64,000 nucleotides of DNA, taken from assembly GCA_964594155.1 (NCBI GenBank), contig CAZQLH010000001.1:1448-65447 (forward strand), given 5' to 3'. This DNA is from an uncultured Candidatus Saccharibacteria bacterium (lineage in GTDB: Bacteria; Patescibacteriota; Minisyncoccia; Portnoybacterales; UBA2143). The translations under genes and the position numbers were made by a program. The notes under the pieces are model-generated. The model had not been told where the DNA came from. It searched no databases and worked only from the letters and a program-made list of their open reading frames with translations. Shown here piece by piece: positions 1 to 31,538 of the stretch (positions within the stretch are counted from its first letter, which is position 1; every line of letters begins with the position of its first letter).

Positions 1-1009
1 TACAACCGTTATTGCAAGATTTTTGCCATTCACAAGAGAAACATTCAGACGGTAAATTGTTTATTCTTTCTACATAACTTAATCTTTCAGCGCTGTTTAA
101 AACTTCAAGGAGTGGTTGTTTAGAAATATCACCTAGTAATAAATCAGGATAACCAGATGACCTATCGCAAGGATAGATTTTGCCATCGTACTCAAGACAA
201 AAATATCCAGCGCAAGATCCATTAAAAGCGCAACTTGAAGGTTTTTTATTAAACATAGCAGAAATGAAATTTTCAATCTCGCGGATTTTAAGCTTGGAGT
301 CATTTTGGGCAAGCCAAAGGTTGATTTGATCTATTAGGAATGTTGTAAGTTGTTTATTTGTAAGACTTTGGCCTGGCATCATCCGATTTTCATTGTTTTT
401 ATCAAGATAGATGTTTGTGCTCCACCCTCTAGCGCCAACAATATTTGTAAAGAAATTGAAATTTTCTTTAGTTTGAGATAAGTTGTCGCTTGTGAGGGTC
501 TGGATAATACCTGGTTTGATGTTGTGGTTACGAAGAATTTTTATTCCTCGCATTATTTGATTAAAACTTCCTTTTCCGTTGTAATTTTTTCGAAATCGAT
601 TATTGCTTTTTTCGTTGCCGTCTAAACTTACACCTACTTTGAAATTATATTCTTTAAAGAACTTAGCCCATTCTTCATTAATTAACGTGGCATTGGTCTG
701 GATGAAATTCTGGATTACTTGATTATTTCTAGTGATTTGTGATTGAATTTCAACTATTCTACGAAAGAAAGACAATCCTGCAAGTAACGGTTCTCCGCCA
801 TGCCAAATGAACATGAAGCGATCTGTAAAAAGTTGCATATACTCTACTAAAAACTTTCTAAGTAATTCATAATTCATGCGACAATTAGTAGATTGGTCTG
901 TTGTACTATAGAAACAATAACCGCAACGAAGATTACAGGAATTGCCGACTATTTTAATAATCGGAATCATTGTTTTAAACGGCGAAGCTAAGATGATAGG
1001 TTTTTTCAT
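1..1009 (-). CDS. radical SAM/SPASM-domain maturase (N-terminal ~336 aa in window; 3' end runs off window start)
   Basis: Minus-strand ORF with ATG at 1009..1007 and a GGAGGTG RBS 8 nt upstream. N-terminal CNLRCGYC (CX3CX2C) radical-SAM cluster motif; C-terminal region is Cys-rich and SPASM-like (CDRSSG..CLSCEWQKSC). Missing from the ORF track because it is edge-truncated. Confidence 0.8.
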   Translation of the reverse strand, partial: MKKPIILASPFKTMIPIIKIVGNSCNLRCGYCFYSTTDQSTNCRMNYELLRKFLVEYMQLFTDRFMFIWHGGEPLLAGLSFFRRIVEIQSQITRNNQVIQNFIQTNATLINEEWAKFFKEYNFKVGVSLDGNEKSNNRFRKNYNGKGSFNQIMRGIKILRNHNIKPGIIQTLTSDNLSQTKENFNFFTNIVGARGWSTNIYLDKNNENRMMPGQSLTNKQLTTFLIDQINLWLAQNDSKLKIREIENFISAMFNKKPSSCAFNGSCAGYFCLEYDGKIYPCDRSSGYPDLLLGDISKQPLLEVLNSAERLSYVERINNLPSECFSCEWQKSCNNGC

Positions 1010-1037
1010 ATTACACCTCCTTTATGTTTGTATTTAA

Positions 1038-1049
1038 ATTTTAATGTGC
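1038..1049. promoter_or_regulatory. perfect 12-nt palindrome TGCAAAATTGCA in divergent promoter region (candidate operator)
   Basis: Seen directly in the intergenic region between the divergent rSAM (-) and ABC exporter (+) genes. Confidence 0.3.
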
Positions 1050-1273
1050 AAAATTGCATCCATTAGCTGCCAAAATTATCTTTTAGAATTCTATCTATAG
1101 TATGGTAAATCATGTTATAAATGTCAATGTTTGTACAGTTTTTTGACTATATTCAAACAATAGAAGATTTTTATCGCTGTACATGACGAGATATAGGCAA
1201 TACACATGATGAGATACATAGGTAACACCTCTAAAATCAAGAAATATGTTAAAAAATATGGTAAGATATTAAT

Positions 1274-3013
1274 ATGGAAATATTTAAAGATTCAAAAATT
1301 ATTTGGCGGTATTTGAGAAAGTATAAAAGAAAAGTTTATTTCATAGCTCTAATTGCTTTAATGGGCTCTTTTGTTAGCGCTGTTATTCCATATATTTATG
1401 GTCGTTTAGTTGATATTGCTGTTGAAGAATCTTCAAGTTTCCAATTAATTGGAGGAATTCTTTTAGGTTGGTTAATTTTGTCTTTATTAGGCAATTGGCT
1501 TGGCCGTATAGCTAGAAATAGAGGAAATCGTGTTTCTATTGACGTTGAAATGGATTTTCGTTTGAAAATAACTAATCATCTTTTGTTTTTGCCTTTAAGC
1601 TTTCATAAGAATGAGAAAATGGGAGAAATTATTCAAAGAGCTAATCGCGGGGCTGGTTTTTTAGATACAATTATTAGCCAAGTTGTTTTTCATCTTGGAC
1701 CAGATTTTTTAACAATTATTGGTTCTTTAATTATTATGGGCTTGGTTGAATGGAGATTAATGATATTTTTATTATTTATTTTATTTTTTTATTTTTTAGC
1801 TACTATTTGGAAAGTAAAACCAATTGTTAAAGCGCAAAAAGAATTAAATAAAATTTATGAAAAATCTTTTGGCGATCTTTATGATTCCATTCTTAATATT
1901 CAAACAGTTAAATCATTTACCAATGAAGAGTTAGAAAGAAAAAAAACAAATAAGAATTTTAGAGATAAAGCTGGTCAAAAGTTTAAGTCTTTTATGGATC
2001 TTTGGCGTATTCTTAATGCTTGGCAGCAAACAATTTTTAGCATAGGATTTGTATTTATTTTTGGCGGAGCTATTTTGTTTTTAAGAAAAGATATTATTAC
2101 TGCTGGCCAATTAGTTATGTTTGTTGGTTATATTAATTTAACATATCGTCCTTTTGCTTCTTTAGCTTATAATTATCGCCAAGTAAGAACTGGGCTAACT
2201 GCCATTCAAAGAGCAGAAAAGCTTCTTAAAGTTAAACCTGAACTTTATCAGAAAGATAAAAAAGAATTAAAGGATATTAAAAGCGAGGTGGAATTTATTA
2301 ATATTAGCTTTAATTACAAAAAAGGCAATCGGGTATTAAAGAATGTTAGCTTTAAAGCTAAATCTGGAGAAATGATTGCTTTGATTGGCGAAAGCGGGGT
2401 TGGTAAAACAACTTTTATTGATTTGATTTCCCGTTACTATATTCCCAAACAAGGGAAAATTTTAATAGATGGACAAGATATTGCTGAAATTAATTTAGAA
2501 TCATTAAGAGAAAATATTGCTGTTGTTCCTCAAGAAGTAACTTTATTTAATGACACAATTAAGAATAATATTAGATATGGGAGGCCTAAAGCTAGTGAAA
2601 AAGAAGTTATTGAAGCGTCTAAAGCGGCTCATGTTCATAATTTTGTTCAAAAGTTTGATAAGAAATATGAGCAATTAGTAGGTGAGCGAGGAATTAAGCT
2701 TTCTACTGGACAAAAACAAAGAGTGGCTATTGCCAGGGCTATCTTGAGAAATCCTAAGATTCTTATTCTTGACGAAGCTACTTCAAGCTTAGATTCGGCT
2801 ACGGAAAAATTAGTTCAAGATGCTTTGAGTTATTTAATTAAAGGAAGAACTACTTTTGTAATTGCTCATCGCTTAAGCACTATTCAAAAAGCTGATCAAA
2901 TTCTTGTTTTAGAAAAAGGCTGTATTGTTGAACAAGGAGATCATCAAGAATTAATTAATAAAGGCGGAGTTTATAAGAAGCTTTCTAAGTTACAATCAAC
3001 TATAATAAGATAA
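1274..3013 (+). CDS. ABC transporter, fused permease/ATP-binding (type I exporter)
   Basis: N-terminal 6-TM region. Walker A GESGVGKTT, ABC signature LSTGQKQRV, Walker B ILILDEATSSLD. Confidence 0.9.
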   Translation: MEIFKDSKIIWRYLRKYKRKVYFIALIALMGSFVSAVIPYIYGRLVDIAVEESSSFQLIGGILLGWLILSLLGNWLGRIARNRGNRVSIDVEMDFRLKITNHLLFLPLSFHKNEKMGEIIQRANRGAGFLDTIISQVVFHLGPDFLTIIGSLIIMGLVEWRLMIFLLFILFFYFLATIWKVKPIVKAQKELNKIYEKSFGDLYDSILNIQTVKSFTNEELERKKTNKNFRDKAGQKFKSFMDLWRILNAWQQTIFSIGFVFIFGGAILFLRKDIITAGQLVMFVGYINLTYRPFASLAYNYRQVRTGLTAIQRAEKLLKVKPELYQKDKKELKDIKSEVEFINISFNYKKGNRVLKNVSFKAKSGEMIALIGESGVGKTTFIDLISRYYIPKQGKILIDGQDIAEINLESLRENIAVVPQEVTLFNDTIKNNIRYGRPKASEKEVIEASKAAHVHNFVQKFDKKYEQLVGERGIKLSTGQKQRVAIARAILRNPKILILDEATSSLDSATEKLVQDALSYLIKGRTTFVIAHRLSTIQKADQILVLEKGCIVEQGDHQELINKGGVYKKLSKLQSTIIR

Positions 3014-3032
3014 GATTTTAAGGAAACAAAAA

Positions 3033-3060
3033 ACCATTGAGTATGGTTTTTTTGTTTTGA
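3033..3060. terminator. bidirectional intrinsic terminator between convergent genes
   Basis: aaaaaaccat-tgagt-atggttttttt hairpin flanked by A/T runs. Confidence 0.6.
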
Positions 3061-3076
3061 CGATAAGCTATATTTT

Positions 3077-3748
3077 TCAAATATATTGGAAGAAAGATTT
3101 AATTAGATTGATGATAGTTTTGTTATTGATAAGTATGCCAGATGATTTGTTTGGAAGAATAATGACTTTATCGTAAATAATAGCAATTCCCTGAAAGGAG
3201 ATAGGAAGTTTTTTTTCTGTGATTTGTATTTTACCCAGGCGTTTTTTAATTTTTTTGTAAATAATCTTTCTTTCTTTTCCGGGCCAGATTTTTTCATTAT
3301 TGATTAAAACATAGATTTTTCTGCTTTTGGTTGTTAATAAATCATCAAACAGAATTTTTATCCCCTTTTTATCTTTATAACTTTTAATTTCTCTTTGATC
3401 GTCTAAAGAATATTTGCTTCGCAAAGTGGCAATAATTCTAATAAATTCCCGTTCTTTTTCTTCTATTTCTTTTTTTTGCCTGCGCAGAATTCCTAAAAGG
3501 TTGTCTGGCGATTCAGCAATAAAGTATCTTTTTCGCTTGTCTTTTGATTCAGAAATAAGGCCTTTTTCTTTTAAGGATTTGATAATCTTATAAGTGGTTG
3601 GCCTGCTTATTTTAGCTTGTTGGGCAATTTTTTGAACAGAAGTATAGCCCAGCTCTAAAGCGGTTAAATAGACTTTGGCTTCTTTTTCACTTAATCCTAA
3701 TTTTCTTAATTCTAACGGCAAAGTTTCCATATGATTATCATATAGCAA
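3077..3748 (-). CDS. TrmB-family HTH transcriptional regulator
   Basis: N-terminal TrmB-type wHTH (LGLSEKEAKVYLTALELGYTSVQKIAQQAKISRPTTYKIIKSL). Confidence 0.7.
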   Translation of the reverse strand: MLYDNHMETLPLELRKLGLSEKEAKVYLTALELGYTSVQKIAQQAKISRPTTYKIIKSLKEKGLISESKDKRKRYFIAESPDNLLGILRRQKKEIEEKEREFIRIIATLRSKYSLDDQREIKSYKDKKGIKILFDDLLTTKSRKIYVLINNEKIWPGKERKIIYKKIKKRLGKIQITEKKLPISFQGIAIIYDKVIILPNKSSGILINNKTIINLIKSFFQYI

Positions 3749-3868
3749 AAAAAAGACATTGACAAGGTTTATTTATATAAGGTATTATAATAAAAGTAAA
3801 TTTGAAGGAAATTTACTATAATTTTTTGTTTTTTAAAAACTAGACAATGAAAGGAGGTGAGAAGAATT

Positions 3869-4030
3869 ATGGTTATCAAAGATGAGGCGCTTCGAGTTTT
3901 GGCCCGTTATGCTTATTGGAGAAAACATTTAGGGTTGCCTCAGAAAAGTGAACAGGTTTTAAATTCTCTTAGTCTTAGTTGTGACGGAGAATGTAAGGCT
4001 TGTTTAGGGCCGTGCTCAGGTGATGATTAA
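3869..4030 (+). CDS. candidate RiPP precursor peptide (53 aa, Cys-rich C-terminus; sacti/ranthipeptide-like)
   Basis: ATG 3869 preceded by AAAGGAGGTG RBS. Translates to MVIKDEALRVLARYAYWRKHLGLPQKSEQVLNSLSLSCDGECKACLGPCSGDD. Ends 60 nt upstream of the radical SAM/SPASM gene at 4091. Not in the ORF track (<60 aa). Confidence 0.55.
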   Translation: MVIKDEALRVLARYAYWRKHLGLPQKSEQVLNSLSLSCDGECKACLGPCSGDD

Positions 4031-4090
4031 AATTAAACTTTGGGAACGTTTCAATAGAGAGGCGTTCCTATTCTTTTAGGAGAGATTGAA

Positions 4091-5185
4091 ATGAAAGATA
4101 GAGATAATAATAACCCTTTTTTTTCTTTGCAATGGCATATAACTTCTAAATGTGATCAACAATGTAAACACTGTTATATGTTTCAGTCTACTGAACTTGC
4201 CAAAAATGAAAAAGATTTGAGTTTTGAAGAGATTATTGAAGTGGTAAAAGATTTTTTAGATACCTGTGAAAAATTGAATGCTAACGCATTCATTGCTTTT
4301 ACTGGAGGTGATCCTCTTTTGAGAGAAGATTTTTTTTCGATTTTGGATTTTATACGCAAAGAAATACATAAACGTGGCATGAAATTTCCTATTATTGATA
4401 TTATGGGAAATCCATTTCATTTAGATTTAGAAACTGCTAAAAACCTAAAGGAAAAAGGAGTAAGACGGTATCAAATAAGTATAGATGGAGTGAGAGAAAA
4501 ACATGATGTACTTAGAAAGAAAGGCAGTTTTCAGGATTCTTTAGAAGCTATTGAAGTACTAAAAAAGACAGGAATAACAACAATTGTGATGTTCACGCTA
4601 AGTAAGTTTAATGCAGTAGATTTTTTTTCTTTAGTTGAACTTTTAGTGAGAGACTGCGAAATAGATATTTTTGCTTTTGCTCGTTTAGTCAGGCCAGAAT
4701 TGATGCCAATTAAAGATTATAGAAAAGTTAGCTTTTCTCCTTTTGAATATAGAGATTTTCTTATAAAAGTAGATTCTTTATACAACACCCTGCACAATGC
4801 CGGTTACAAGACTAAATTTTCCTTAAAAGATCATTTATGGAAGCTGTTTTTATATGAACGAGGTGAATTTACCTTTAATAGTGTAAATGATGGGATTGTT
4901 TATGGTGGATGTGGAATAGGAGTGGCTAATCTTTCTGTTTTATGTGATGGGAAAGTATACGCCTGCAGACGATTTCCAAGCTTGATAGGGAATGTGCCAA
5001 AAGATAAACTAATAGATATATTTTTACAGTCGGAGAAGCTAAATTGTTATCGTGAATTGTCTAATTTCATTAAATGTAAAAAATGTGAATTATTGCAATA
5101 TTGCCGTGGGTGTGGTGCGGTAGCGTATGGTGTTTTTGGTTCATTTTTTGCACCTGATCCTCAATGTTGGAAGAAACTTGATTAA
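4091..5185 (+). CDS. radical SAM/SPASM-domain peptide-modifying enzyme
   Basis: CDQQCKHC (CX3CX2C) motif near the N-terminus. C-terminal SPASM-like CKKCELLQYCRGC and GGCGIG..CDGKVYAC. Confidence 0.85.
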   Translation: MKDRDNNNPFFSLQWHITSKCDQQCKHCYMFQSTELAKNEKDLSFEEIIEVVKDFLDTCEKLNANAFIAFTGGDPLLREDFFSILDFIRKEIHKRGMKFPIIDIMGNPFHLDLETAKNLKEKGVRRYQISIDGVREKHDVLRKKGSFQDSLEAIEVLKKTGITTIVMFTLSKFNAVDFFSLVELLVRDCEIDIFAFARLVRPELMPIKDYRKVSFSPFEYRDFLIKVDSLYNTLHNAGYKTKFSLKDHLWKLFLYERGEFTFNSVNDGIVYGGCGIGVANLSVLCDGKVYACRRFPSLIGNVPKDKLIDIFLQSEKLNCYRELSNFIKCKKCELLQYCRGCGAVAYGVFGSFFAPDPQCWKKLD

Positions 5186-5207
5186 GTCTGTGTTTGTGTT
5201 TTATAAT

Positions 5208-5241
5208 AGAGAGTAGAGATATTTCTACTCTCTTTATTTTT
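5208..5241 (+). terminator. intrinsic terminator-like hairpin after rSAM gene
   Basis: agagagtagag-atatttc-tactctct followed by a T-run. Confidence 0.45.
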
Positions 5242-5847
5242 ATGTTTAAGTTTGCTAAAAAAATAAATAATAAGGTCAAACAATTGGCCTCAAGAATTCC
5301 TAAAAATGGAAAGGTTTTAGATTTAGGTTCAGGTATGGGTGCTAATAGTATTTTTTTATCAGATCAAGGTTTTAAAGTTACTTGCGTGGATAAAGATAAA
5401 GAGGTGATTAATGAAATAAAAAAAAAGTGTCAAGAAATTAATGTTGTATCAGGAAATATTTTAGATTTTGGTTTTCCTGAAAATGAGTATGATTTAATTT
5501 TAATATTGAATGTTTTGCATTTTTTTAGATTTACAGAGGTAAAAATAATAATAGACAAAACAATTAAATCTTTAAGAAAAGGAGGATTAGTTTATCTTGA
5601 GGTTTTCTCTACTAAAGATCCTTCGTATGTTAATTTTATAAAAGTTGCTCAGAAAATTAAAGGAGAAGGTTCGTTTTATAGTAAAAAAATGAAAAGTTTT
5701 GTACATTATTTTACAAAAGAGGAAATTATAAAGCTTTTTTCTGGGAACAAAATTTTAGAAATAGAAGAAAAGATAACAAGAGATAATCATCCGCCCATTG
5801 GCATACACAAACATAGTATTTTTTTTGTAGTGGTCGAAAAAGTTTGA
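5242..5847 (+). CDS. class I SAM-dependent methyltransferase
   Basis: Motif I VLDLGSGMGANSIFL with acidic motif II. Start chosen at ATG 5242; the ORF track's 5194 start lies inside the terminator. Confidence 0.65.
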   Translation: MFKFAKKINNKVKQLASRIPKNGKVLDLGSGMGANSIFLSDQGFKVTCVDKDKEVINEIKKKCQEINVVSGNILDFGFPENEYDLILILNVLHFFRFTEVKIIIDKTIKSLRKGGLVYLEVFSTKDPSYVNFIKVAQKIKGEGSFYSKKMKSFVHYFTKEEIIKLFSGNKILEIEEKITRDNHPPIGIHKHSIFFVVVEKV

Positions 5848-5987
5848 AGGAATGAAAAGTTATTAAAGTAAAATTATCAATATTTTATTGTCAATCATTA
5901 CTTTACAAATAATCATTTAAAACATCGCTTTAATCAAGCGATTTTTGTTTATTTTCGTTCCTGTGGATAATTTTTGTCGGGAAAAAC

Positions 5988-6017
5988 TTGACAAAGGTTT
6001 ATAAAATAGCATATAAT
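5988..6017 (+). promoter_or_regulatory. near-consensus sigma-70 promoter (TTGACA-18-TATAAT)
   Basis: ttgacaaaggtttataaaatagcatataat read directly from sequence. Confidence 0.5.
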
Positions 6018-6061
6018 CATAATATAAAGTTGTCTTTGAAATCATAATTAAGTTTAAAAAT

Positions 6062-6160
6062 ATGGACAACAAAATTATTTTAGCCATTATCATAATAGCA
6101 GTGCCAGTATCATTAACTTTGATAATCTGGTTAATTGGCAAGTATTACAGTAAAGAATAA
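6062..6160 (+). CDS. small hydrophobic peptide (32 aa, single TM) downstream of consensus promoter
   Basis: MDNKIILAIIIIAVPVSLTLIIWLIGKYYSKE. No clear SD; speculative. Confidence 0.3.
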   Translation: MDNKIILAIIIIAVPVSLTLIIWLIGKYYSKE

Positions 6161-6288
6161 AAAGTTATTGAAAGCTAACAAATCAAATCAAAAAGATTAA
6201 GATTTAATCTCCTTGATTCGGTTTGTTAAATAGAGAACCGAGTGGTTCTTTGAAAATATAATACTTGGAGAAAAAAGGGGGTGATGAT

Positions 6289-7320
6289 ATGTTACTGCAT
6301 CCTGGAACTGGGATGGAAAGCCTGAATGATTATAAAGTTCGGGTTGGCAATGGCGGAGTTATAATTACAACTCTTGGAGCAAAGGAATTTAACGGAGAAT
6401 ATAATAAAAGGAATTGGTTGTATGTGCTATTTATGCGACTGGTCAGTATCTGGGCAGCATTGACAAACTTCACTCAAGCTCTTTTTATTAAGGTGTTCAA
6501 AAAAAGGAAAAGTTCTCTTGGGAAAATTCTCTGGGAGATGGGAAGAGACCCAGAACACATTTCTAGTTTTTTTGGCGATCGATTTAGCAGGATTAACCAC
6601 CAGGCTGTAGTTGGAGCTGCAAGTTGGAAATCTCTTGATATTGTTTACAATTATCATGAGAAGATTAAGCCACAGCTTAATGGCGGTGTTGAAGGTTGGT
6701 TAACAAATCATTGGATCGGAAAACTTGAAAACCGTCAGGCTATTGCTAATCGATTGAAAATTATTATTAATCTTTTAACAAAGGCCTTTGCAGAATTTGC
6801 TAATGAGCCGGAAATTAGAATAATTTCACTGGCTTCTGGTTCAGCCCAGGCAGTTATAGAGGCAATGTTAAAGCGTCCTCATTTTAATATTAAAGCAGTT
6901 TTAATTGATATTGACAGAACTGCTTTAGCAGCTGCAAAAGCTTACGCTGAAAAAAATGGGTTAGGAGATAGATTTACCTTTATCAAGGGCACAACTAGAG
7001 TTTTGGAAAAAGTTTGTCAGGAATTTCAACCTCATATTATTGAGATGGTTGGATTTCTTGATTACAGGCCTGATGATAAGGCAATTAAATTAATCAATAA
7101 GATTAAAGACTGCCTGTCTGATAAAGGAATTTTTCTAACCTGCAACATTAACTACAATCGGGAGAAAATCTTTCTTGATTGGGTTATGTTATGGCCCATG
7201 ATTTATAGAAGCGAGGAACAGTTTACAAAATTGCTTCTCAATGGAGGTTTTTTTCCTCAAAATGTTGACATATTTTATGAACCGTTTCAGATTCATGGAA
7301 TTGGAGTATGTCAAAAATAA
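6289..7320 (+). CDS. SAM-dependent methyltransferase-like protein
   Basis: Rossmann-like IISLASGSAQAVIEA..LIDIDRTALAAAKAYAEKNGLGDRFTFIKG. ATG 6289 has a GGGGGTGATGAT RBS, which is preferred over the TTG at 6265. Confidence 0.5.
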   Translation: MLLHPGTGMESLNDYKVRVGNGGVIITTLGAKEFNGEYNKRNWLYVLFMRLVSIWAALTNFTQALFIKVFKKRKSSLGKILWEMGRDPEHISSFFGDRFSRINHQAVVGAASWKSLDIVYNYHEKIKPQLNGGVEGWLTNHWIGKLENRQAIANRLKIIINLLTKAFAEFANEPEIRIISLASGSAQAVIEAMLKRPHFNIKAVLIDIDRTALAAAKAYAEKNGLGDRFTFIKGTTRVLEKVCQEFQPHIIEMVGFLDYRPDDKAIKLINKIKDCLSDKGIFLTCNINYNREKIFLDWVMLWPMIYRSEEQFTKLLLNGGFFPQNVDIFYEPFQIHGIGVCQK

Positions 7321-7383: not shown

Positions 7384-9510
7384 ATGAGTTTTTATGCTAT
7401 CACCGCATTAATAAATGCTATTACTAGTACTATTCTTGGGCTTTTTGTTTATTTTAAAAACAAAAAAGCAAAGATTAATCAAGCTTTTGCTTTGTTTTGT
7501 TTAAGCGCGGCTGTTTGGAGTTACGCTTATTATTTTTGGCAGATAGCTGATAATGCCAATAGCGCTCTTTTCTGGGTTCGGGGATTAATGATAGGAGCTA
7601 TTTTTGGTCCTATTTGTTATTTTTATTTTATTCTTAGACTGCTTAATAAGATTAAAGAAAAGAAAAAATCGCTTATTTTTGGATATTTAGTTTTTTTCTT
7701 TTTCTTTTTAGCTAATTTTACTTCTTTGTTTGTAAAAGGAGTAGGGCCAAAATTAGAGTTTGCTTTTTGGCCAGAGCCAGGCATTCTTTATCATCCGTTT
7801 CTTTTAGCTTGGCTTTTTTATGCGCTTTATGCGGTTTATTTATTATTCAATAAATATTTTTCTTCTTCAGGAATAACACATGCTAAGATTAAATATATTT
7901 TTATAGGAACAATTGTTGGATATTTAGGCGTGGCAACTAATTATTTATTATGGTATGATATTCCTATTCCGCCAATAGGTAATTGGACAGCTACATTTTA
8001 TTTAGCTGCTGTTGCCTACGCCATTCTCAAATACCGTTTGATGGATATCAGGGTGGCGATTAAGAGAAGCACTATTTTTTCCGGAGTTGTTATTATCATC
8101 ACAGCTGTCTATGTTATGGCGGCTTTTTTGTTAGGATTGATATTCTTTGGCGGCGTTTATACCCTTAGAACACAAGTTATTACTGGTTTAATCGTAGCTA
8201 TTCTAACTGCTGTTGGATTTAGGCCGCTGTATGAATGGTTAAAAAGAACAACTGACGCATTTTTATTTAAAGGCGAGTATAAGCCAGAGGAATTAATGTC
8301 TGATGTTTCTGATGTTTTATCCCGGACTTTAGATTTAGATAAGGTTATTAATACTTTAGAAGAACAAATTACTCAAGCCTTGAGATTGGAAAATATAGAA
8401 GTAGTTGTTTTTGGAAAAGAAGGCAGGGAATTGGATAAATTAGCTAATTGTTTTAAAAAACAAAGAGATGTATTGGTCTTAGAAGAATTAAAGAGAAAAC
8501 ATTCAGAAGGAATTTTATCTGGTGAAAATTTTCTCTATATTAAAGAAATGGAAAAACTAAAGGCAGCTTTAGTTGTTCCTTTAACGCTTAAAGAAAGATT
8601 ACTCGGACTTTTTCTTTTAAAAGCTAAGAAGTCCGGGGATATGTTTACTAATGAAGATATTAAAACATTGGAAACAATTGCCGCTCAAGCAGCTATTGCA
8701 ATTGAAAACGCCCGGCTTTATGAAGAGATGAGGGATTTTTCCAAGACGCTTCAAAAAGAAGTTAGATTTCAAACAAAAGAGCTTAGAGGCGCCAATATTA
8801 GATTACAGCAATTAGACAAAGCTAAATCAGAATTTATTTCATTGGCTTCTCATCAGCTAAGAACTCCTTTAAGCATTGTTAAGGGATATATTTCAATGAT
8901 ATTAGAAGGTTCTTGGGGTAAGATTAACAAAGAACAGAAAGGTCAATTAGAAAGGGTTTATTTAAGCAATGAGCGGTTAATTAGATTAGTTGACGACTTA
9001 TTAGCTGTTTCCAGGATTGAGTCAGGCCGTTTAGAGCTTGATTTTAAATCAGTTTCTTTAGAAAAGATGACTAAGAGCGTGATTGAAGAATTTAAGAAAG
9101 TTGCTGATGACAAAGGCCTTTATTTAAAATATATTGAGCCAAAAAAGCCAATTCCTTTAATTAAAATTGATGCTTTGAAAATTAGGCAAGTTGTTCAGAA
9201 TTTAGTTGATAATGCTCTTTTTTATACTAATAAAGGAGGAGCAGTTATTCGGCTTAAAACAGATAAAGACAAAATCATTTTTAGCATTAAAGATACTGGC
9301 ATTGGCGTTTCTGCCAAAGAGCAAGTAACTTTGTTTGAAAAGTTTTCCCGCGGACATGCAGGAGCTAAAATTCATACTGAAGGAACCGGCTTAGGATTGT
9401 ATTTAGCTGCTAAGTTAGTTTCAGCTCATCAAGGCAGAATTTGGGTTAAATCCAAAGGCAAAGACAAAGGCAGCGCCTTCTATTTTGAACTGCCGATAAA
9501 AAGAAAATAA
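7384..9510 (+). CDS. sensor histidine kinase (multi-TM sensor + GAF + HisKA + HATPase)
   Basis: HisKA H-box SHQLRTPL; N/G boxes (DNALFYT, DTGIGV, GTGLGL); GAF-like middle region; N-terminal ~7 TM. Confidence 0.9.
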   Translation: MSFYAITALINAITSTILGLFVYFKNKKAKINQAFALFCLSAAVWSYAYYFWQIADNANSALFWVRGLMIGAIFGPICYFYFILRLLNKIKEKKKSLIFGYLVFFFFFLANFTSLFVKGVGPKLEFAFWPEPGILYHPFLLAWLFYALYAVYLLFNKYFSSSGITHAKIKYIFIGTIVGYLGVATNYLLWYDIPIPPIGNWTATFYLAAVAYAILKYRLMDIRVAIKRSTIFSGVVIIITAVYVMAAFLLGLIFFGGVYTLRTQVITGLIVAILTAVGFRPLYEWLKRTTDAFLFKGEYKPEELMSDVSDVLSRTLDLDKVINTLEEQITQALRLENIEVVVFGKEGRELDKLANCFKKQRDVLVLEELKRKHSEGILSGENFLYIKEMEKLKAALVVPLTLKERLLGLFLLKAKKSGDMFTNEDIKTLETIAAQAAIAIENARLYEEMRDFSKTLQKEVRFQTKELRGANIRLQQLDKAKSEFISLASHQLRTPLSIVKGYISMILEGSWGKINKEQKGQLERVYLSNERLIRLVDDLLAVSRIESGRLELDFKSVSLEKMTKSVIEEFKKVADDKGLYLKYIEPKKPIPLIKIDALKIRQVVQNLVDNALFYTNKGGAVIRLKTDKDKIIFSIKDTGIGVSAKEQVTLFEKFSRGHAGAKIHTEGTGLGLYLAAKLVSAHQGRIWVKSKGKDKGSAFYFELPIKRK

Positions 9511-11321: not shown

Positions 11322-12245
11322 ATGGCTTTGATTATTGAAAAGAAACAAATAAAAGAGTGGTTAATAGAATTAAAGAAAGATTTTAAAGTTGTTAATGTTA
11401 AGAATTCTATTCTGCCGCCCAAGAAATATTTTTTTCCTCCTCAGGAAGATATTTTTGTTTTTGATAAAAAAACAAAAAATCTTGATACTGTAGATTACAA
11501 GAAACAGTTAGTGATTTTTGGCTTAAGCTTGAATAAATTAGAAGGCATTAAGCAATTAGATGAAATAATGAGCAAGCCCCAGCCAGATTTTTTTTACTGG
11601 CAAAGAAGAGAACAGTCAGTTTTAATTGGCTTAACTGATAATTCAGTTGAAGTAACTCCAGCTGGCGACCTTATTTTAGAAAAAATTAATCAAAAGCAAT
11701 ATCAAGCATTGGTTTTAACTGATAAGGGGAAGAAATTAGCTCAAAACAAGTTTTTTAAAGAAAATAAAAATCCAGAGATTAAAAAATATCCTCAAGAAGA
11801 AAATCCAGCTAAAAAAATGCTTTTAGATTCAGAATTATTAGCTGAAGCAGTAGAATGGTCTTGGCAAGTAAATCATAAGATTTGGGATGAGTTGGCTGAA
11901 AAATGCTTAGGTTGCGGTATTTGCACATATGTTTGTCCTCTTTGCCATTGTTTTTCCATAAAAGACAGGGTTAGCTTAGATGATAAGAAGTGCGTTCGCT
12001 GCCGGCAATGGGATGCTTGCACTTTGCCAAGCTTTGCTAAAATTGCTGGCGGGCATAATTTTCATAAAACCATTAAAGAGCGATATTATAATTGGTTTTA
12101 TCATAAATTTGTGCGTGCATATAAGGAATATGGCAAGCCGCAATGCATAGCTTGCGGCAATTGCAAAGAATATTGCCCAGCTAAGATTAAAATAGGAGAA
12201 GTTTTAAAAGAAATAGTTAAGGATTATAAAAAGAAAAAAGAATAA
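11322..12245 (+). CDS. hydB: [NiFe]-hydrogenase group 3b-like beta subunit (4Fe-4S ferredoxin-domain protein)
   Basis: Two ferredoxin-type Cys clusters (CLGCGICTYVCP, CIACGNCKEYCP). First gene of a four-gene hydrogenase operon. Confidence 0.65.
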   Translation: MALIIEKKQIKEWLIELKKDFKVVNVKNSILPPKKYFFPPQEDIFVFDKKTKNLDTVDYKKQLVIFGLSLNKLEGIKQLDEIMSKPQPDFFYWQRREQSVLIGLTDNSVEVTPAGDLILEKINQKQYQALVLTDKGKKLAQNKFFKENKNPEIKKYPQEENPAKKMLLDSELLAEAVEWSWQVNHKIWDELAEKCLGCGICTYVCPLCHCFSIKDRVSLDDKKCVRCRQWDACTLPSFAKIAGGHNFHKTIKERYYNWFYHKFVRAYKEYGKPQCIACGNCKEYCPAKIKIGEVLKEIVKDYKKKKE

Positions 12246-12260
12246 ATTTATTAAACTTAT

Positions 12261-12323
12261 ATTCTAAAATTTATGAGCGCTTTACCCTAAAGGGCTTTGA
12301 CGCGTCTCAGAAATTTCAGAACA
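12261..12323. repeat. structured intergenic repeat, copy 1 (A/T inverted arms flanking GC-rich hairpin core)
   Basis: ATTCTAAAATTT..GCGCTTTACCCTAAAGGGCTTTGACGCG..AAATTTCAGAAC. Near-identical copy 3 below. Confidence 0.7.
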
Positions 12324-12357
12324 CTCGTTTTTATTAATATAAATTTTATTATTAGTT

Positions 12358-13314: not shown

Positions 13315-14064
13315 ATGATTAAACCAAAAGTTGCTATCTATGACTTTACTGATTGTGAAGGATGTGAAGTAGAGATTATTTCTCTTAGAGAAAAGCTTTT
13401 AATATTGGAAAGCAGATTAGATATTGTTGATTGGCGATTAGGCCAGGATAGAAAAGAATCTGGCCCTTTTGATATCACTATTATTGAAGGAACTCCAATA
13501 ACTCAGCATGAAATTGATTTACTTAAGAAATTAAGAAAAGAATCAGAAGTTTTAATTGCTTTGGGCGCTTGCGCTGCTTTGGGCGGTATTCCAGCGATTG
13601 TGGATAAAAAAGAGCGGGCTAAATGGTATAAGAAGATTTATCCTTCGACAAGCTCAGGACAAGCGTATAAGCCAAGGGGAATTGACGCTTTGCCTTTATC
13701 TGCTTATGTTCAAGTTGATTTTTTAATTCATGGCTGTCCAGTCAATGGCAAAGAAGTAGTTAGAATTATTGAAGACTTGTTAGCTGGCAAAGTTCCAAAG
13801 TATCAAGGCTATTCAGTTTGTTTTGAATGCAAACAGGAAAATAATCCTTGTCGGCTATCGGATAGCCGACCTTGCTTGGGTCCGATTACTCAAGGCGGGT
13901 GCCAAGCTATTTGTGTTTCTGGCGGTTCTGCTTGTTATGGCTGTTTTGGCTTGCGCGAAGAACCAGAAATTAAAAATTTATTAAAGATTCTTAATAAGAT
14001 TACAGATAAAAAAGAAATTGAAAGATATTTTACAATGTTTTTGAGTAGAGTAAACAAGAAATAA
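13315..14064 (+). CDS. hydD: [NiFe]-hydrogenase small (delta) subunit
   Basis: NuoB/hydrogenase small-subunit-like Cys pattern (DCEGCE, GACA, HGCP; C-terminal CxxC..C). Confidence 0.75.
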   Translation: MIKPKVAIYDFTDCEGCEVEIISLREKLLILESRLDIVDWRLGQDRKESGPFDITIIEGTPITQHEIDLLKKLRKESEVLIALGACAALGGIPAIVDKKERAKWYKKIYPSTSSGQAYKPRGIDALPLSAYVQVDFLIHGCPVNGKEVVRIIEDLLAGKVPKYQGYSVCFECKQENNPCRLSDSRPCLGPITQGGCQAICVSGGSACYGCFGLREEPEIKNLLKILNKITDKKEIERYFTMFLSRVNKK

Positions 14065-14082
14065 AACAAATAAAAATTTCAT

Positions 14083-14146
14083 ATTCTAAATTTTCTTCGC
14101 GCTTTACCCTAAAGGGCTTTGACGCGTCTCAGAAATTTCAGAATAT
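14083..14146. repeat. structured intergenic repeat, copy 3
   Basis: ATTCTAAATTTT..GCGCTTTACCCTAAAGGGCTTTGACGCG..AAATTTCAGAATA. The core is identical to copy 1. Confidence 0.7.
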
Positions 14147-14161
14147 TCATTTTTTTATACA

Positions 14162-28415: not shown

Positions 28416-29045
28416 TTACCAGGCAACTAATGCGCTGTATTGTTCAAGATTCTTTAGTTGGCTTGGCGTTAATTGCAGAGAAGCGTCTATAGCTTCTTTA
28501 ATTAAATCTTCTGAAAAGGAAACCTCTTCGTTAACTTCTAAAGGCCTTGAGCCGATTTTATCTTTAAGATAGTCCTCAATGTAGATTTTATGTTCATTAG
28601 TTAATTCTTGAGGATTATCTTTAAGATGGTTTTTAAGAGCCCGTCGAGCCAAATGAGTTACTCCTTCTCCTAAGTTTGCTTTTTCTATAATTGCGCCGCC
28701 TTCTTTTCTGGATTCTGGTATGATTTCCTGAATAGTAATTTCTTTACTGTCATCTTGTTGGCTGTCTTCAGTTAATCCAGTTAAGCCTTCAATATCAGCA
28801 ATTTGTTCTTCTTGGTTTAAATCTTCATCTAGAATAAGCGTTGCTTCTTTTCCTTTTTGATTAGCGTATAGATAAATGCCGCCAGCTAGAATTAGAAGAG
28901 CAATAATTGGAAGAATGACAGAACTGCCGTATTTATTGATCCATCCTTTGATTTTTGCGCTCCAATTCTTTTTATTGTCTAATCCGAATTGCGGACCAGA
29001 AATTGGTTGAGAAGGTTTTGGGTTTCCTGGATTTTGATTATTCAT
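28416..29045 (-). CDS. hypothetical membrane-anchored protein
   Basis: ORF with one N-terminal TM and an acidic C-terminal region. Confidence 0.5.
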   Translation of the reverse strand: MNNQNPGNPKPSQPISGPQFGLDNKKNWSAKIKGWINKYGSSVILPIIALLILAGGIYLYANQKGKEATLILDEDLNQEEQIADIEGLTGLTEDSQQDDSKEITIQEIIPESRKEGGAIIEKANLGEGVTHLARRALKNHLKDNPQELTNEHKIYIEDYLKDKIGSRPLEVNEEVSFSEDLIKEAIDASLQLTPSQLKNLEQYSALVAW

Positions 29046-29116
29046 GATTATTTCTTTTAATCTGATCTTTTTATTTGGTTTCGACCTTTTCCTCCACCCT
29101 AATATTCAATTTTTAA

Positions 29117-30811
29117 TTAAACTTTAATTATGACTGATAAAACCATTGGCCGTCTTTGTGTTTTAGTATAAAGGAATTGTCCGATTTTGTCACGTATATT
29201 ATCCTTAGTGTGATTCCAATTTGTTGTGTATTCAGATGAAGATGCTTGAGAGATGATTTTTTTGACTTTTTCTCTGGTTTGGTTAAGTAGTTCTTTTGAT
29301 TCTCGCAAATAAACAAAACCGCGGGAAATAATATCTGGCTCGCCTCTGACCTTGCCTGTTTTACTGTCAACTAAGGCAATAATAACAAACATGCCATCTT
29401 TGGCCATTTCTTGTCTATCTCTTAGCACAACTTGGCCAACATCGCCAACGCCTAATCCATCTACCATAACATAGCTTGCTGGAACTGTTTCCTTGCTTAA
29501 TCTGATTGAGTTTTGATTAAGCAAAATTACATTTCCATTGCCAGCTACCATGATATTTTTTAAGGGAATACCAACGCTTTCAGCAATTTCTCCGTGTAAT
29601 TTCAGCATATAGTAACTGCCGTGGATAGGAATAAAGAATTTGGGGCGGATTAGGTTAATCATTAATTTAAGGTCTTCTTCTTGAGCGTGTCCGCCAGCAT
29701 GAATATCCATCATTTGGTAGTGATAGACGCGCGCGCCTTGCCTCCAGAGATTATCTTTTAAGCCCTGGACAGATCTTTCATTGCCTGGAACAACTGAAGA
29801 TGAAAAAGCAATCGCATCGCCTTTTTGTATTTTAATATGGCGGTGTTCTTGATTGGCAACTTTCATTAGAACAGCGTTTCCTTCGCCTTGAGCGCCAGTA
29901 CAAAGCACTACTGTCTTATTTGGCGGATAATTATCTATTTGATTTATTTTAATCAAAGTTCCTTTTTGTACTTTAAGGTAATTTAGTTTTTTAGTGATTT
30001 CAACGTTCATTTTCATGCTATATCCTTCAATAGCTACTTTGCGATTGTATTTTTCAGCTAAATTGATTACTTCCTGAATACGGCTGATTAAAGAGGCAAA
30101 GGTAGCTACAATAATACGTCCAGGCACTTCTCTGAAAATAATTTCTAAATTATCTTGAATGTCTTTTTCAGAAACAGAATGGCCGGGTTTTTCCGCGCTA
30201 GTGCTGTCAGACATTAAAGCCAGAACATTGCCATTGGCTATTTCAGAAATACGGGAAATATCTGCTGGTTCGTCGCCAATAGGGCTGTGGTCGAATTTAA
30301 AGTCGCCTGTATGGACAATTCTGCCCACAGGCGTGTCAATCGCTAAGCCAACTCCATCAGGGATATTATGGTTAACATGGAAGAATTCAATCTTAAAACA
30401 GCCTAATTTAATCTTGTCGGTCTTTTTTATTTCATGAATATTTAGTTTAGGCGCTTTGGGAAAGTCATCCTGTCTTCTCATGATAATTCCTCGAGTCAGT
30501 GGAGTTGTGTAAATAGGCGGATTGCCTAATCGTCTCATTGAATGAGGAATAGCTCCAATATGGTCATAATGGCCATGGGTGATAATAACACCTTTGATTT
30601 TTTCTTTTTTGTCTTTAAGATAGGCAGTATTAGGGATAATATAGTCAATTCCAGGCATATCTTCTTCAGGGAATTGCAGGCCCATATCAATGATAATAAT
30701 ATCCCCGCCTGCCGGCGAGGCAGGATTATCATATTCAAAAATCATCATATTGCGGCCGATTTCACCTAAGCCGCCTAAAGGAATAATTTTTAAGTTTTGC
30801 GTTTTTTTCAT
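29117..30811 (-). CDS. rnj: ribonuclease J
   Basis: Metallo-beta-lactamase HGHYDH motif plus beta-CASP and C-terminal domain; 564 aa. Confidence 0.9.
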   Translation of the reverse strand: MKKTQNLKIIPLGGLGEIGRNMMIFEYDNPASPAGGDIIIIDMGLQFPEEDMPGIDYIIPNTAYLKDKKEKIKGVIITHGHYDHIGAIPHSMRRLGNPPIYTTPLTRGIIMRRQDDFPKAPKLNIHEIKKTDKIKLGCFKIEFFHVNHNIPDGVGLAIDTPVGRIVHTGDFKFDHSPIGDEPADISRISEIANGNVLALMSDSTSAEKPGHSVSEKDIQDNLEIIFREVPGRIIVATFASLISRIQEVINLAEKYNRKVAIEGYSMKMNVEITKKLNYLKVQKGTLIKINQIDNYPPNKTVVLCTGAQGEGNAVLMKVANQEHRHIKIQKGDAIAFSSSVVPGNERSVQGLKDNLWRQGARVYHYQMMDIHAGGHAQEEDLKLMINLIRPKFFIPIHGSYYMLKLHGEIAESVGIPLKNIMVAGNGNVILLNQNSIRLSKETVPASYVMVDGLGVGDVGQVVLRDRQEMAKDGMFVIIALVDSKTGKVRGEPDIISRGFVYLRESKELLNQTREKVKKIISQASSSEYTTNWNHTKDNIRDKIGQFLYTKTQRRPMVLSVIIKV

Positions 30812-30814
30812 AAG

Positions 30815-31528
30815 TTATTTCCAGTCATATTTTCCTGGATTTTTCAAAAAGTCCAGTTTTTTTAAATCATTAACCAGATGATACATTTCTTTATTTTTGT
30901 CTATATTAAATTTATCCAGCCAGAGATTTGGCTCTTTGAATCTTAAATCAGGAACTAAATCATAATTTTTATTCTTAACCCAGTTTATTTCCCCGGTATT
31001 GCTTTTTAAGGCATAGTAGCAAAAGCCGCGCTTTTGCCTGAATGGCTTGTAAATATTAGATTCAAAATTATTGCAAATCCAATTAGCTGTTTGCAGTTCT
31101 TTTCCAGAAGCATTTATTATTAGATGTTCGTAATTAGGCGGAACAATTATTTTGTCTCCTTTTTTAGCTTTAATTGCGTAAACGTCTTTTATGTTATCTC
31201 TTTTTGAATCTTGGAGCAGGAAAATAGCTTGGCCGTGTAAAACTTGGTAAATCTCTGGATAGGTTAAATTGCTATTAGGCGCAATAGGATGATCATGGCC
31301 AGCTGTTTTATTGAATTCCTGGCCTAAGATAATAAAGGGGATAATAGTGATATCATACCTAAGGCCGTGTTTGTGAATTAAATCCTTTTCCTCTTTATTA
31401 TCAGCTAAATCGCGATACATGTAGTAAAGTTTTAAATCAGGCGCGGTTTTAACCCATTTTTGGTCAAAAAGCGCTTCTTTTATTTCAGCTAAATAACGAA
31501 TTTTCGGCTTAAGTTTTTTTATTTGCAT
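30815..31528 (-). CDS. cupin-type (archaeal-type) glucose-6-phosphate isomerase
   Basis: cPGI-like TAGHDHP..PEIYQVLHG..PPNYEH metal-binding signatures. Confidence 0.55.
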   Translation of the reverse strand: MQIKKLKPKIRYLAEIKEALFDQKWVKTAPDLKLYYMYRDLADNKEEKDLIHKHGLRYDITIIPFIILGQEFNKTAGHDHPIAPNSNLTYPEIYQVLHGQAIFLLQDSKRDNIKDVYAIKAKKGDKIIVPPNYEHLIINASGKELQTANWICNNFESNIYKPFRQKRGFCYYALKSNTGEINWVKNKNYDLVPDLRFKEPNLWLDKFNIDKNKEMYHLVNDLKKLDFLKNPGKYDWK

Positions 31529-31538
31529 TTTAATAAAA

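Follow-up and report, generated by a model that had tools for sequence, protein, structure and literature searches.

Two probable RiPP-type cassettes, conserved independently of each other, lie side by side in a Patescibacteria-like genome

The stretch of DNA described here, called the window, is 64,000 nucleotides (nt) long and comes from an uncultured Candidatus Saccharibacteria bacterium (assembly GCA_964594155.1). At its left end lie what are probably two independent cassettes for peptides that are made by the ribosome and modified after translation (RiPPs), side by side in a Patescibacteria-like genome. The probability of this reading, with the membership given here, is put at roughly 0.7 to 0.75. 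Cassette A consists of rSAM1, a radical S-adenosylmethionine (rSAM) enzyme with a SPASM domain, together with a Trp-rich precursor and a protein with a HExxH motif, the HExxH partner. Cassette B consists of a Cys-rich precursor, a second rSAM/SPASM enzyme called rSAM2, and a methyltransferase, MT1. Genes for an ATP-binding cassette (ABC) exporter and a TrmB-family regulator lie in between, and a second methyltransferase gene, MT2, follows. The gene content is established, as are the conservation of both trios and of their precursor families, the mutual independence of the cassettes, and the fact that neither the ABC exporter nor TrmB nor MT2 is conserved along with them. Every chemical step, the export route and the regulation are inferred.

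Genes were read from a listing of open reading frames (ORFs) and from six-frame translation. Domains were assigned by Pfam and NCBIfam profile searches. All genes named in a preliminary description of the region, which was made from the sequence alone, are present, with coordinates that agree exactly or to a few codons. Looking up the exact rSAM2 protein led to six assemblies with 99.9-100% identity to the window. The gene calls in these six independent assemblies are identical, which means that the genes are real. The GC content is low (about 32%), and this, together with the names of homologs, points to Patescibacteria as the host group. Its parent contig is called L001, and a position on L001 equals the window position + 5910.

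Cassette A takes up window positions 1-1009 and about 1.2 kb past the left edge, on L001. The order there is rSAM1, then the precursor ORF of 52 amino acids (aa) on the same strand, then a convergent ORF of 295 aa with the motif HEVIH. The preliminary description had proposed to look beyond the edge for the remainder of the first rSAM gene and any further precursors, and leftward extension of the contig did yield the full 379-aa rSAM1, a further 52-aa precursor and the 295-aa HExxH gene.

Two sibling contigs, L002 and L003, are 99.9% identical to L001 and lack rSAM1, the 52-aa ORF and the HExxH gene (L001 ~4679-7152 is missing). In both, the gene for tRNA-guanine transglycosylase (TGT) lies 28 bp from the ABC gene. 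Running blastn on the L001 flanks shows that a 2.56-kb indel in L001 is bounded by a 76-bp direct repeat of 93% identity, with 5 mismatches. The right copy covers the first 17 codons of the ABC gene. In L002 and L003 the repeat is single-copy and the cassette is absent. This can be either excision/insertion or a deletion mediated by recombination. Because L002 and L003 lack the rSAM1 segment, and because the 76-bp repeat bounds the 2.56-kb difference, rSAM1 belongs to a separable, strain-variable unit. A homolog of rSAM1 or of the HExxH partner was found in none of the rSAM2-type loci. Together with the two siblings, this means that the cassettes are independent of each other.

The Cassette B precursor has four Cys in the last 16 of its 53 residues, and ends 60 nt before rSAM2. 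A scan of a genome collection with rSAM2 gave 80 related loci, 79 of which have enough upstream DNA. A precursor was counted if a small ORF on the same strand ended less than 200 nt upstream and its final 35 residues included 3 or more Cys. Such a Cys-rich upstream ORF is present in 61/79 loci, versus 34/321 control positions (11%). The family also has a leader. The motif [NAESD][FYSD]W occurs in 44 of the 61 family precursors, versus 3% of other small ORFs, and [ST]-x-Q-x-[FVIL]-[LMTI] in 41 of the 61, versus 0.7%. In the window precursor, AYW fits the first motif and SEQVLN is a near-match to the second. The proposal in the preliminary description that this peptide is a precursor is thus borne out by both leader and gene context.

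When 1.8 billion representative proteins were searched with phmmer, the window precursor matched only itself and repeat-protein noise. The link to the precursor family therefore rests on the leader motifs and the gene context. Two related precursors, in L170 (MSNRENQLDKEKIQVLKKYNYWRSSLGMPEEKKKVPKHFSSMDCSCNMEPCQTCIGY) and in L167 (…KVLAKYNYWRGSMGLKKGTVRTMQSADCSCNMEACSTCIGPSLKPR), have VL.(K/R)Y.YWR..[LM]G and E.C..C[LI]G[PY] in common with that of the window. In relatives at 58-59% rSAM2 identity the order precursor, rSAM enzyme, TehB-like methyltransferase is kept, and the flanks are wholly different.

In rSAM2, the CX3CX2C motif and seven SPASM Cys are invariant. The protein starts about 15 residues ahead of its CX3CX2C, and has no N-terminal extension of the RiPP recognition element (RRE) type. 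Its top NCBIfam match is TIGR04340 (radical SAM/SPASM, ACGX system), with 373.1 bits versus a cutoff of 400. For calibration, on this model the enzyme of an ACGX-repeat locus scores 549 bits, other Cys-rich types score 434-464, and the clade of the window scores 348-373, with the nearest relatives of rSAM2 at 348-350. On these scores rSAM2 is placed in a divergent sub-branch of the ACGX-system family. The rSAM2 family has many members in the Patescibacteria.

The ACGX system (TIGR04340 together with TIGR04341) has been defined by bioinformatics, and its product is uncharacterised. The TIGR04340 family is likewise taken as uncharacterised, because its NCBI label is a system name only. A full-text literature search found nothing relevant on the ACGX system, TIGR04340 or TIGR04341. 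Cassette B has the same gene order, with a small precursor directly upstream of the enzyme. The leader motifs [N/A][F/Y]W and S-x-Q-x-F-L are common to the window precursor and the ACGX precursors, as is a Cys-rich C-terminal core, and the ACGX enzyme is a full-SPASM protein without RRE extension, just like rSAM2. There are also differences. Besides the score of rSAM2 under the cutoff, the window precursor is without A-C-G-X repeats and gives no match to TIGR04341 (cutoff 28 bits) even at E <= 10, whereas the ACGX-repeat peptides of L052 and L028, which served as positive controls, score 63-66 bits. The rSAM2 sub-clade moreover adds a conserved TehB-like methyltransferase. Cassette B is a divergent, methyltransferase-bearing branch of this system.

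The second match of rSAM2 is SbtM (TIGR04082), with 203.6 bits versus a cutoff of 350, over profile positions 195-503 only. This match spans the whole catalytic and SPASM region, and SbtM is the nearest relative of rSAM2 that has been characterised experimentally. SbtM acts on Cys in a ribosomal peptide. According to a review (PMC11002830), which summarises Lewis et al. 2021, it turns Cys or selenocysteine (Sec) into a thio(seleno)oxazole, and 4 H are lost. By analogy, rSAM2 might convert Cys to thio-oxazole; this assignment is a tentative one. SbtM differs in having an N-terminal extension of about 195 aa, which is missing in rSAM2. In addition, its precursors carry UGA-encoded selenocysteine, whereas in-frame TGA is absent from the window precursor, whose stop codon is TAA.

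The principal alternative, itself rather doubtful, is that rSAM2 makes thioethers and not thio-oxazoles. It would then work like the sactipeptide and ranthipeptide maturases, and join Cys S to the C-alpha, C-beta or C-gamma of an acceptor, for example Asp or Glu. The logic of a Cys-rich precursor with a SPASM/twitch rSAM enzyme is indeed common to Cassette B and to such clusters (CteB-SCIFF, PapB-freyrasin, SkfB, StsB). The window core has C-x-x-E and C-x-x-D spacings, and L170 and L167 keep C-N-M-E. Freyrasin-type ranthipeptides carry Cys-to-Asp thioethers, and the C-G-A-x-D units in ACGX-repeat cores recall these. Ranthipeptides are summarised in the review already cited (PMC11002830). The nearest solved structures to rSAM2 by sequence, CteB and SkfB, are both thioether formers, though at only 37-38 bits.

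The profile scores argue for thio-oxazole: SbtM gets 204 bits, versus 70 for PapB (cutoff 340) and 61 for StsB (cutoff 625), and the SCIFF maturase is absent from the top 25 matches. Over the thioether group as a whole the scores lie at a very weak 37-78 bits. Those maturases typically have an N-terminal RRE, which is missing from rSAM2, and Cassette B has no C39 exporter or dedicated protease. Family cores that are dense in Cys and poor in acceptors (e.g. CSCNCSSGCSACSSSCGSC) would suit heterocyclisation of each Cys better. Other Cys chemistry takes the likelihood that remains beyond thio-oxazole and thioether.

MT1 has a homolog in 15/80 related loci, mostly from Patescibacteria and Saccharibacteria. 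In several of these it is directly downstream of the enzyme, and the same holds for L007 and L167-L172. MT1 counts as the conserved tailoring partner that goes with rSAM2 in a sub-clade rich in candidate phyla radiation (CPR) bacteria, and it probably methylates the Cassette B product.

The closest rSAM2 relative in the genome collection, at 61% identity, is found in a Paceibacterota locus (L007 5965-7653). It is truncated at the 5' end and lacks the CX3CX2C region. There is no upstream precursor, and the MT1 homolog is retained. This appears to be a degraded cassette.

A strong Shine-Dalgarno (SD) sequence, GGAGGTG, stands 8 nt upstream of the precursor ATG. The hairpin after the precursor (-18 kcal/mol, z = -3.64, with a T-run) is likely a partial terminator or attenuator. 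The second hairpin, after rSAM2, may partly uncouple the expression of MT1 from that of rSAM2, and the third, after MT1, likely marks the end of the Cassette B transcription unit. The promoter, hairpin and SD signals between 3759 and 5942 fit a single operon.

Put together, Cassette B might work as follows. The precursor would be transcribed from the promoter at about 3759, and, owing to the hairpin behind its stop codon, there would probably be more transcripts of the precursor than of the enzyme. rSAM2, with its SPASM domain, two auxiliary Fe-S clusters and no RRE, would recognise the conserved leader …RY.YW… and oxidatively modify Cys in the C-terminal core. The likeliest such step is the four-electron conversion of Cys to thio-oxazole, by homology to SbtM, with thioether cross-linking as the main alternative. 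MT1 would then methylate the product, and sulfur is a plausible target given the TehB-like ancestry of the enzyme.

Cassette A has a very different kind of precursor. Its 52-aa peptide on L001 reads MEKGINALQGAFERAKERPDINLSAQESSDWDQWNNWDDLGGDDPGWGDISD, and contains four Omega1-X2-X3 triplets, where Omega is an aromatic residue (W, F, Y or H): WDQ, WNN, WDD and WGD. The leader AI.GA[FL].R is conserved among homologous loci. The cores are made up of aromatic-X-[D/N/Q] triplets, for example GWDNWPDWDN…FPNWEDI, HWDNYDDHWDNYDDH, GYSDAGYNDSHSD…WGDQWNDGSEHSDSWSD and SYPD…YSDTPYVDCPYDDYQDN. Over 12 precursors, D, N or Q stands at +2 of 64 of the 82 aromatics, and 0 of 2000 shuffles reach that count.

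Triceptides are defined by just such an Omega1-X2-X3 motif. In these, rSAM/SPASM enzymes that form three-residue cyclophanes (3-CyFEs) link the aromatic ring to the C-beta of residue 3 (PMC11499958). The Cassette A precursor, with several of these motifs in its C-terminal core, fits this rule and not the Omega1-X2-Omega3 rule of the daropeptides.

The radical-SAM motif of rSAM1 is CNLRCGYC. Across 24 homologs, 11 Cys are invariant, 3 in CX3CX2C and 8 in the SPASM region. There is no sequence N-terminal to the rSAM domain, and no RRE. The known triceptide enzymes are likewise rSAM/SPASM proteins without RRE that resemble anaerobic sulfatase-maturating enzymes (anSMEs). Among the solved relatives of rSAM1 the triceptide synthase ChlB ranks second, at 88.6 bits, and in ChlB systems a HExxH-motif protein is encoded alongside, as in Cassette A. 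From the precursors and the enzyme family, the odds that rSAM1 forms cyclophanes on Omega-X-[D/N] triplets are put at somewhat better than even. The products would most likely be three-residue cyclophanes from the aromatic ring to the C-beta of the +2 residue, on W-D-Q, W-N-N, W-D-D and W-G-D.

Cassette A also differs from known triceptide systems. rSAM1 stays under the cutoff of every curated 3-CyFE model (109-159 versus 310-450 bits), with score/cutoff at 159/425 for AmcB, 148/445 for YhhB, 144/310 for GrrM-OscB, 109/450 for XyeB and 109/370 for FxsB. X3 is nearly always Asp or Asn. Downstream of the enzyme comes the precursor gene, and the HExxH partner is a protein by itself, from a family without Pfam or NCBIfam model. 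The distribution is essentially confined to Patescibacteria. By these comparisons Cassette A looks like a triceptide-like family without match to any curated maturase, precursor or partner model.

After an anSME model that is discussed below, the next-best profile hidden Markov model (HMM) matches of rSAM1 are the maturases of dynobactin and darobactin: DynA at 220, DarW at 169 and DarE at 164 bits. Their substrates are rich in Trp, like the Cassette A precursor, and dynobactin has a Trp-to-Asn C-beta link. The CX3CX2C context CNLRC.YC of these maturases is the same as that of rSAM1 (PMC9055067). The scores are however far under the cutoffs, which are 450-650 bits (DarE 164/650), and no DarBCD-type transporter set accompanies Cassette A. 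The aromatics of Cassette A stand at i, i+3 and i+6, in contrast to the Omega1-X2-Omega3 of daropeptides (PMC12912966).

The family of the HExxH partner comprises 144 clusters at 90% identity, all annotated as hypothetical. The named clusters come from Parcubacteria, Paceibacterota, Wolfebacteria, Azambacteria and related groups; the exceptions are 1 labelled Nanoarchaeota and 1 unclassified. Four residues are invariant (H199, E200, H203 and E231), and AlphaFold gives a confident model, with a pLDDT of 95.3. The protein has the marks of a gluzincin, HExxH and a downstream Glu ligand on a zincin fold. A profile search against PDB sequences found no relative. The partner has no Pfam match, no NCBIfam match, and none to the HExxH oxygenases that depend on alpha-ketoglutarate (alpha-KG; IPR026337, ChlH/PflC type). 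The chance that it is a peptidase is put at about even, with hydrolytic removal of the leader as the favoured role. In the proposed scheme, this convergently encoded zincin-fold protein would most likely remove the Cassette A leader.

It is a good deal less probable that the partner is an alpha-KG/Fe(II)-dependent oxygenase, like ChlH, that beta-hydroxylates Asp or Asn, or cleaves oxidatively, after the cyclophanes have formed. Such HExxH oxygenases are known partners of triceptide synthases. Their targets, once the cyclophane is in place, are Asp and His, and for some of them backbone cleavage is described (PMC12636437). The Cassette A cores are also rich in Asp and Asn. Yet the partner matches neither the curated alpha-KG-HExxH family nor any NCBIfam model, and faint SprT-like protease matches turn up in 25/40 members. 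The invariant Glu comes 28 residues after HExxH, in an N-E-A context; in thermolysin the third zinc ligand is a Glu in that same context. Furthermore, hydrogenase and ferredoxin genes on the contig suggest anaerobic life, which would disfavour chemistry that depends on O2. A peptidase is therefore the preferred role.

The trio of rSAM enzyme, ORF of 36-68 aa and protein of ~300 aa without Pfam match is repeated in L087, L088, L174-L180, L091 and L092. The homologs found by look-up have an enzyme identity of 51-74%, and the trios of L091 and L092 are at 33-35%. In L095 the rSAM enzyme and the small ORF are kept, and the partner gave no match. L173 is a variant without partner. Scanning metagenomes with the rSAM1 alignment brought up, for the most part, genuine anSMEs of about 30% identity, and was informative only for L087, L088, L091, L092, L095 and L149. 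The rSAM1 family as a whole has many Patescibacteria members.

In the L173 variant (1-5954) the rSAM1 homolog has 74% identity, and its neighbours are a Rep3_N/RPA-like replication gene and a gene for a NACHT NTPase. In its downstream small ORF the leader is kept (MEKGANAIQGAFERAK) and the Trp-rich core is lost. This looks like a decaying cassette, perhaps on a plasmid-like element. Two other Patescibacteria loci have a second, unrelated radical-SAM gene just past the HExxH partner. In L178 it encodes 428 aa (5479-6765, minus strand), and in L180 it encodes 417 aa with SPASM-like Cys motifs (5748-7001, plus strand). These extra genes hint at small RiPP 'islands'.

Several results weigh against the reading of the two cassettes given here. 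For Cassette B, enzyme and precursor both fall under the curated ACGX cutoffs, and the ACGX repeats are missing from the precursor. SbtM, on which the chemistry is modelled, is only a 204-bit relative, and both its N-terminal extension and its Sec substrate are missing here. Of the rSAM2-family loci, 18/79 have no Cys-rich upstream ORF. For Cassette A, the top match of rSAM1 is a sulfatase maturase, by HMM as well as by PDB. Finally, an ABC homolog is found near an rSAM1 cassette in 3 of about 12 loci, so there may be a loose functional link with export.

In L087 and L177, ABC homologs of 42-49% identity stand no further than about 3 kb from the cassette. In L087 a PheRS-like gene, an acyltransferase gene and a toxin-antitoxin pair separate the two, and in L177 a NUDIX gene. 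This is read as shared local synteny or as an insertion hotspot. The ABC exporter was considered as a core part of Cassette A and rejected, since it is kept in the siblings that lack the cassette and is separated by housekeeping genes elsewhere. It is a neighbour, possibly a co-opted one, and no defining part of either cassette.

The preliminary description had instead taken the region to be a single compact cluster of the sactipeptide/ranthipeptide type. The two rSAM enzymes and the two methyltransferases, along with the ABC exporter and TrmB, would then act on one product. The genes do adjoin in the window, with the exporter between both enzymes and TrmB divergent from the precursor gene, an arrangement also seen in L013. 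Comparative genomics has however largely refuted this account, and it is now very unlikely. rSAM1 is part of a separate cassette, missing from siblings that keep everything else, and each rSAM enzyme has its own conserved precursor and partner. Among the 80 rSAM2-type loci, an ABC homolog occurs in 7 and is never adjacent, a TrmB homolog in 1 (L013, also divergent and upstream), and an MT2 homolog in 0. Neither enzyme reaches any sactipeptide or ranthipeptide maturase model: scores are 61-144 bits versus cutoffs of 340-625, with rSAM1 at 144/340 for PapB and 74/425 for SCIFF. Of the characterised chemistries, the nearest is thio-oxazole formation, by SbtM, for rSAM2, and the making of aromatic-to-C-beta cyclophanes for rSAM1.

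Other parts of that description have held up better. Both rSAM proteins are full SPASM enzymes (PF04055 and PF13186, CX3CX2C, invariant auxiliary Cys), and both are RiPP-type maturases with conserved cognate precursors. The outcome that the description had named as refuting, with both rSAM proteins among non-RiPP families and no precursor-like peptide conserved, did not arise: the best match of rSAM1 is indeed a sulfatase maturase model, but rSAM1 stays under its cutoff and has a conserved precursor. The exporter was said to lack a C39 peptidase, and it does have no such N-terminal domain: against TIGR01193 and TIGR03796, which model peptidase-containing exporters, it aligns only from profile positions 151 and 143 onwards, and Pfam gives ABC_membrane and ABC_tran alone. 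Of the two methyltransferases, MT1 stands as a tailoring partner. MT2 does not; it has a promoter-like site of its own and is no part of Cassette B. TrmB may regulate Cassette B locally, to judge by the overlapping divergent promoter-like sites.

The last alternative concerns rSAM1 alone. Its best NCBIfam match is TIGR03942 (anaerobic sulfatase maturase), with 286.8 bits versus a cutoff of 349.45, its best PDB match is the C. perfringens anSME, at 163 bits, and it agrees with an anSME in length and in its eight auxiliary-cluster Cys. It is nevertheless hardly credible that rSAM1 is an ordinary anSME or another non-RiPP SPASM enzyme with an incidental small ORF next to it, as the preliminary description had also considered: all eight family members tested, rSAM1 included, stay under the cutoff (263-302 bits) while genuine anSMEs in the same metagenome scan pass it (L117 490, L098 395 bits); among the called genes in the flanks examined, which are locus flanks and not whole genomes, there is no PF00884 sulfatase; and a small ORF with conserved leader and Omega-X-[D/N] repeats lies downstream in 12 loci, down to 33% enzyme identity, with neither (C/S)-x-P-x-R in the peptide next to rSAM1 nor (C/S)-x-(P/A)-x-R in the Cassette A precursors.

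The genomes of CPR bacteria, or Patescibacteria, are tiny, and the usual view is that they hold little secondary metabolism. The present analysis finds two compact cassettes for peptide maturation in such genomes, both widely conserved, and one of them varies between near-identical strains. The preliminary description held that such loci are rarely described in tiny CPR-like genomes; they are not rare in CPR, as both enzyme families and the HExxH partner have many Patescibacteria members. A literature search for cyclophane RiPPs together with Patescibacteria found no paper combining both terms. It is possible, though somewhat short of even odds, that Cassette A is an undescribed, Patescibacteria-wide, triceptide-like branch, with Omega-X-Asp/Asn precursors and a dedicated zincin-fold family, carried on a strain-variable and probably mobile unit. 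If this is true, and taken with the methylated, Cys-modified peptide of Cassette B, modified peptides would be a routine investment of ultra-small episymbionts with minimal genomes, perhaps to interact with a host or to compete.

If the chemistry holds, Cassette A would bring triceptide/darobactin-type cyclophanes to a new phylum-level lineage, along with a new family of accessory enzymes. Cassette B would be a tractable three-gene entry (precursor, enzyme, methyltransferase) into the ACGX-system family. Both cassettes are small enough for direct heterologous co-expression. Table 1 lists the features of the region.

Table 1. Features of the two cassettes and their neighbours, in window positions unless L001 is given.
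Feature	Position	Strand	Remarks
rSAM1	1-1009	minus	first 336/379 codons; runs off left edge; PF04055 + PF13186
76-bp imperfect direct repeat, right copy	1249-1324	unstranded	overlaps 5' end of ABC gene; L001 7159-7234
ABC exporter	1274-3013	plus	PF00664 (ABC_membrane) + PF00005 (ABC_tran); MsbA-like; 579 aa
TrmB-family winged-helix regulator	3077-3730/3748	minus	PF01978, 59 bits; divergent from precursor gene
sigma-70-like promoter match	3759-3788	plus	TTGACA-18-TATTAT, 11/12; consensus match only
Cassette B precursor, 53 aa, MVIKDEALRVLARYAYWRKHLGLPQKSEQVLNSLSLSCDGECKACLGPCSGDD	3869-4030	plus	leader motif RYAYW; Cys-rich core
Hairpin, 12-bp stem then T-run	4041-4070	plus	between precursor and rSAM2
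rSAM2, 364 aa	4091-5185	plus	CDQQCKHC; PF04055 + PF13186
Hairpin with T-run	5208-5233		between rSAM2 stop codon and MT1 start codon
MT1, TehB-like class I SAM methyltransferase	5242-5847	plus	TehB/Methyltransf_25; strong match
Bidirectional hairpin after MT1	5924-5942	unstranded	
Promoter match TTGACA-18-TATAAT, 12/12	5988-6017		ahead of MT2
MT2, class I methyltransferase	6265/6289-7320	plus	PF12147 (Methyltransf_20) + PF13847 (Methyltransf_31); weak, above threshold
76-bp repeat, left copy	L001 4603-4678		outside window
HExxH partner, 295 aa	L001 4677-5564	plus	beyond left window edge
Cassette A precursor, 52 aa, Trp-rich	L001 5614-5772	minus	beyond left window edge
rSAM1, full length, 379 aa	L001 5780-6919	minus	

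Between the promoter match ahead of MT2 and MT2 itself there is a strongly hydrophobic 32-aa ORF (MDNKIILAIIIIAVPVSLTLIIWLIGKYYSKE) at 6062-6160. It was considered as a second precursor and rejected: besides being hydrophobic it contains no Cys, and a separate promoter precedes it. Further to the right, window 7384-9510 encodes a HisKA_7TM-GAF histidine kinase. Homologs of this kinase lie within a few kb of the rSAM2-type loci L034, L083, L086 and L167, and of the rSAM1-type locus L177. It may simply be a common Patescibacteria gene.

The remaining observations concern the rest of the window. An intergenic, imperfect direct repeat of about 110 bp, with 84% identity, is found at 12227-12336 and 14051-14157. 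It sits within the block of ferredoxin and NiFe-hydrogenase genes at about 11.3-15.4 kb. At 28416-33290 there are four minus-strand genes amid an otherwise plus-strand window, and both GC and AT skew are locally inverted there.

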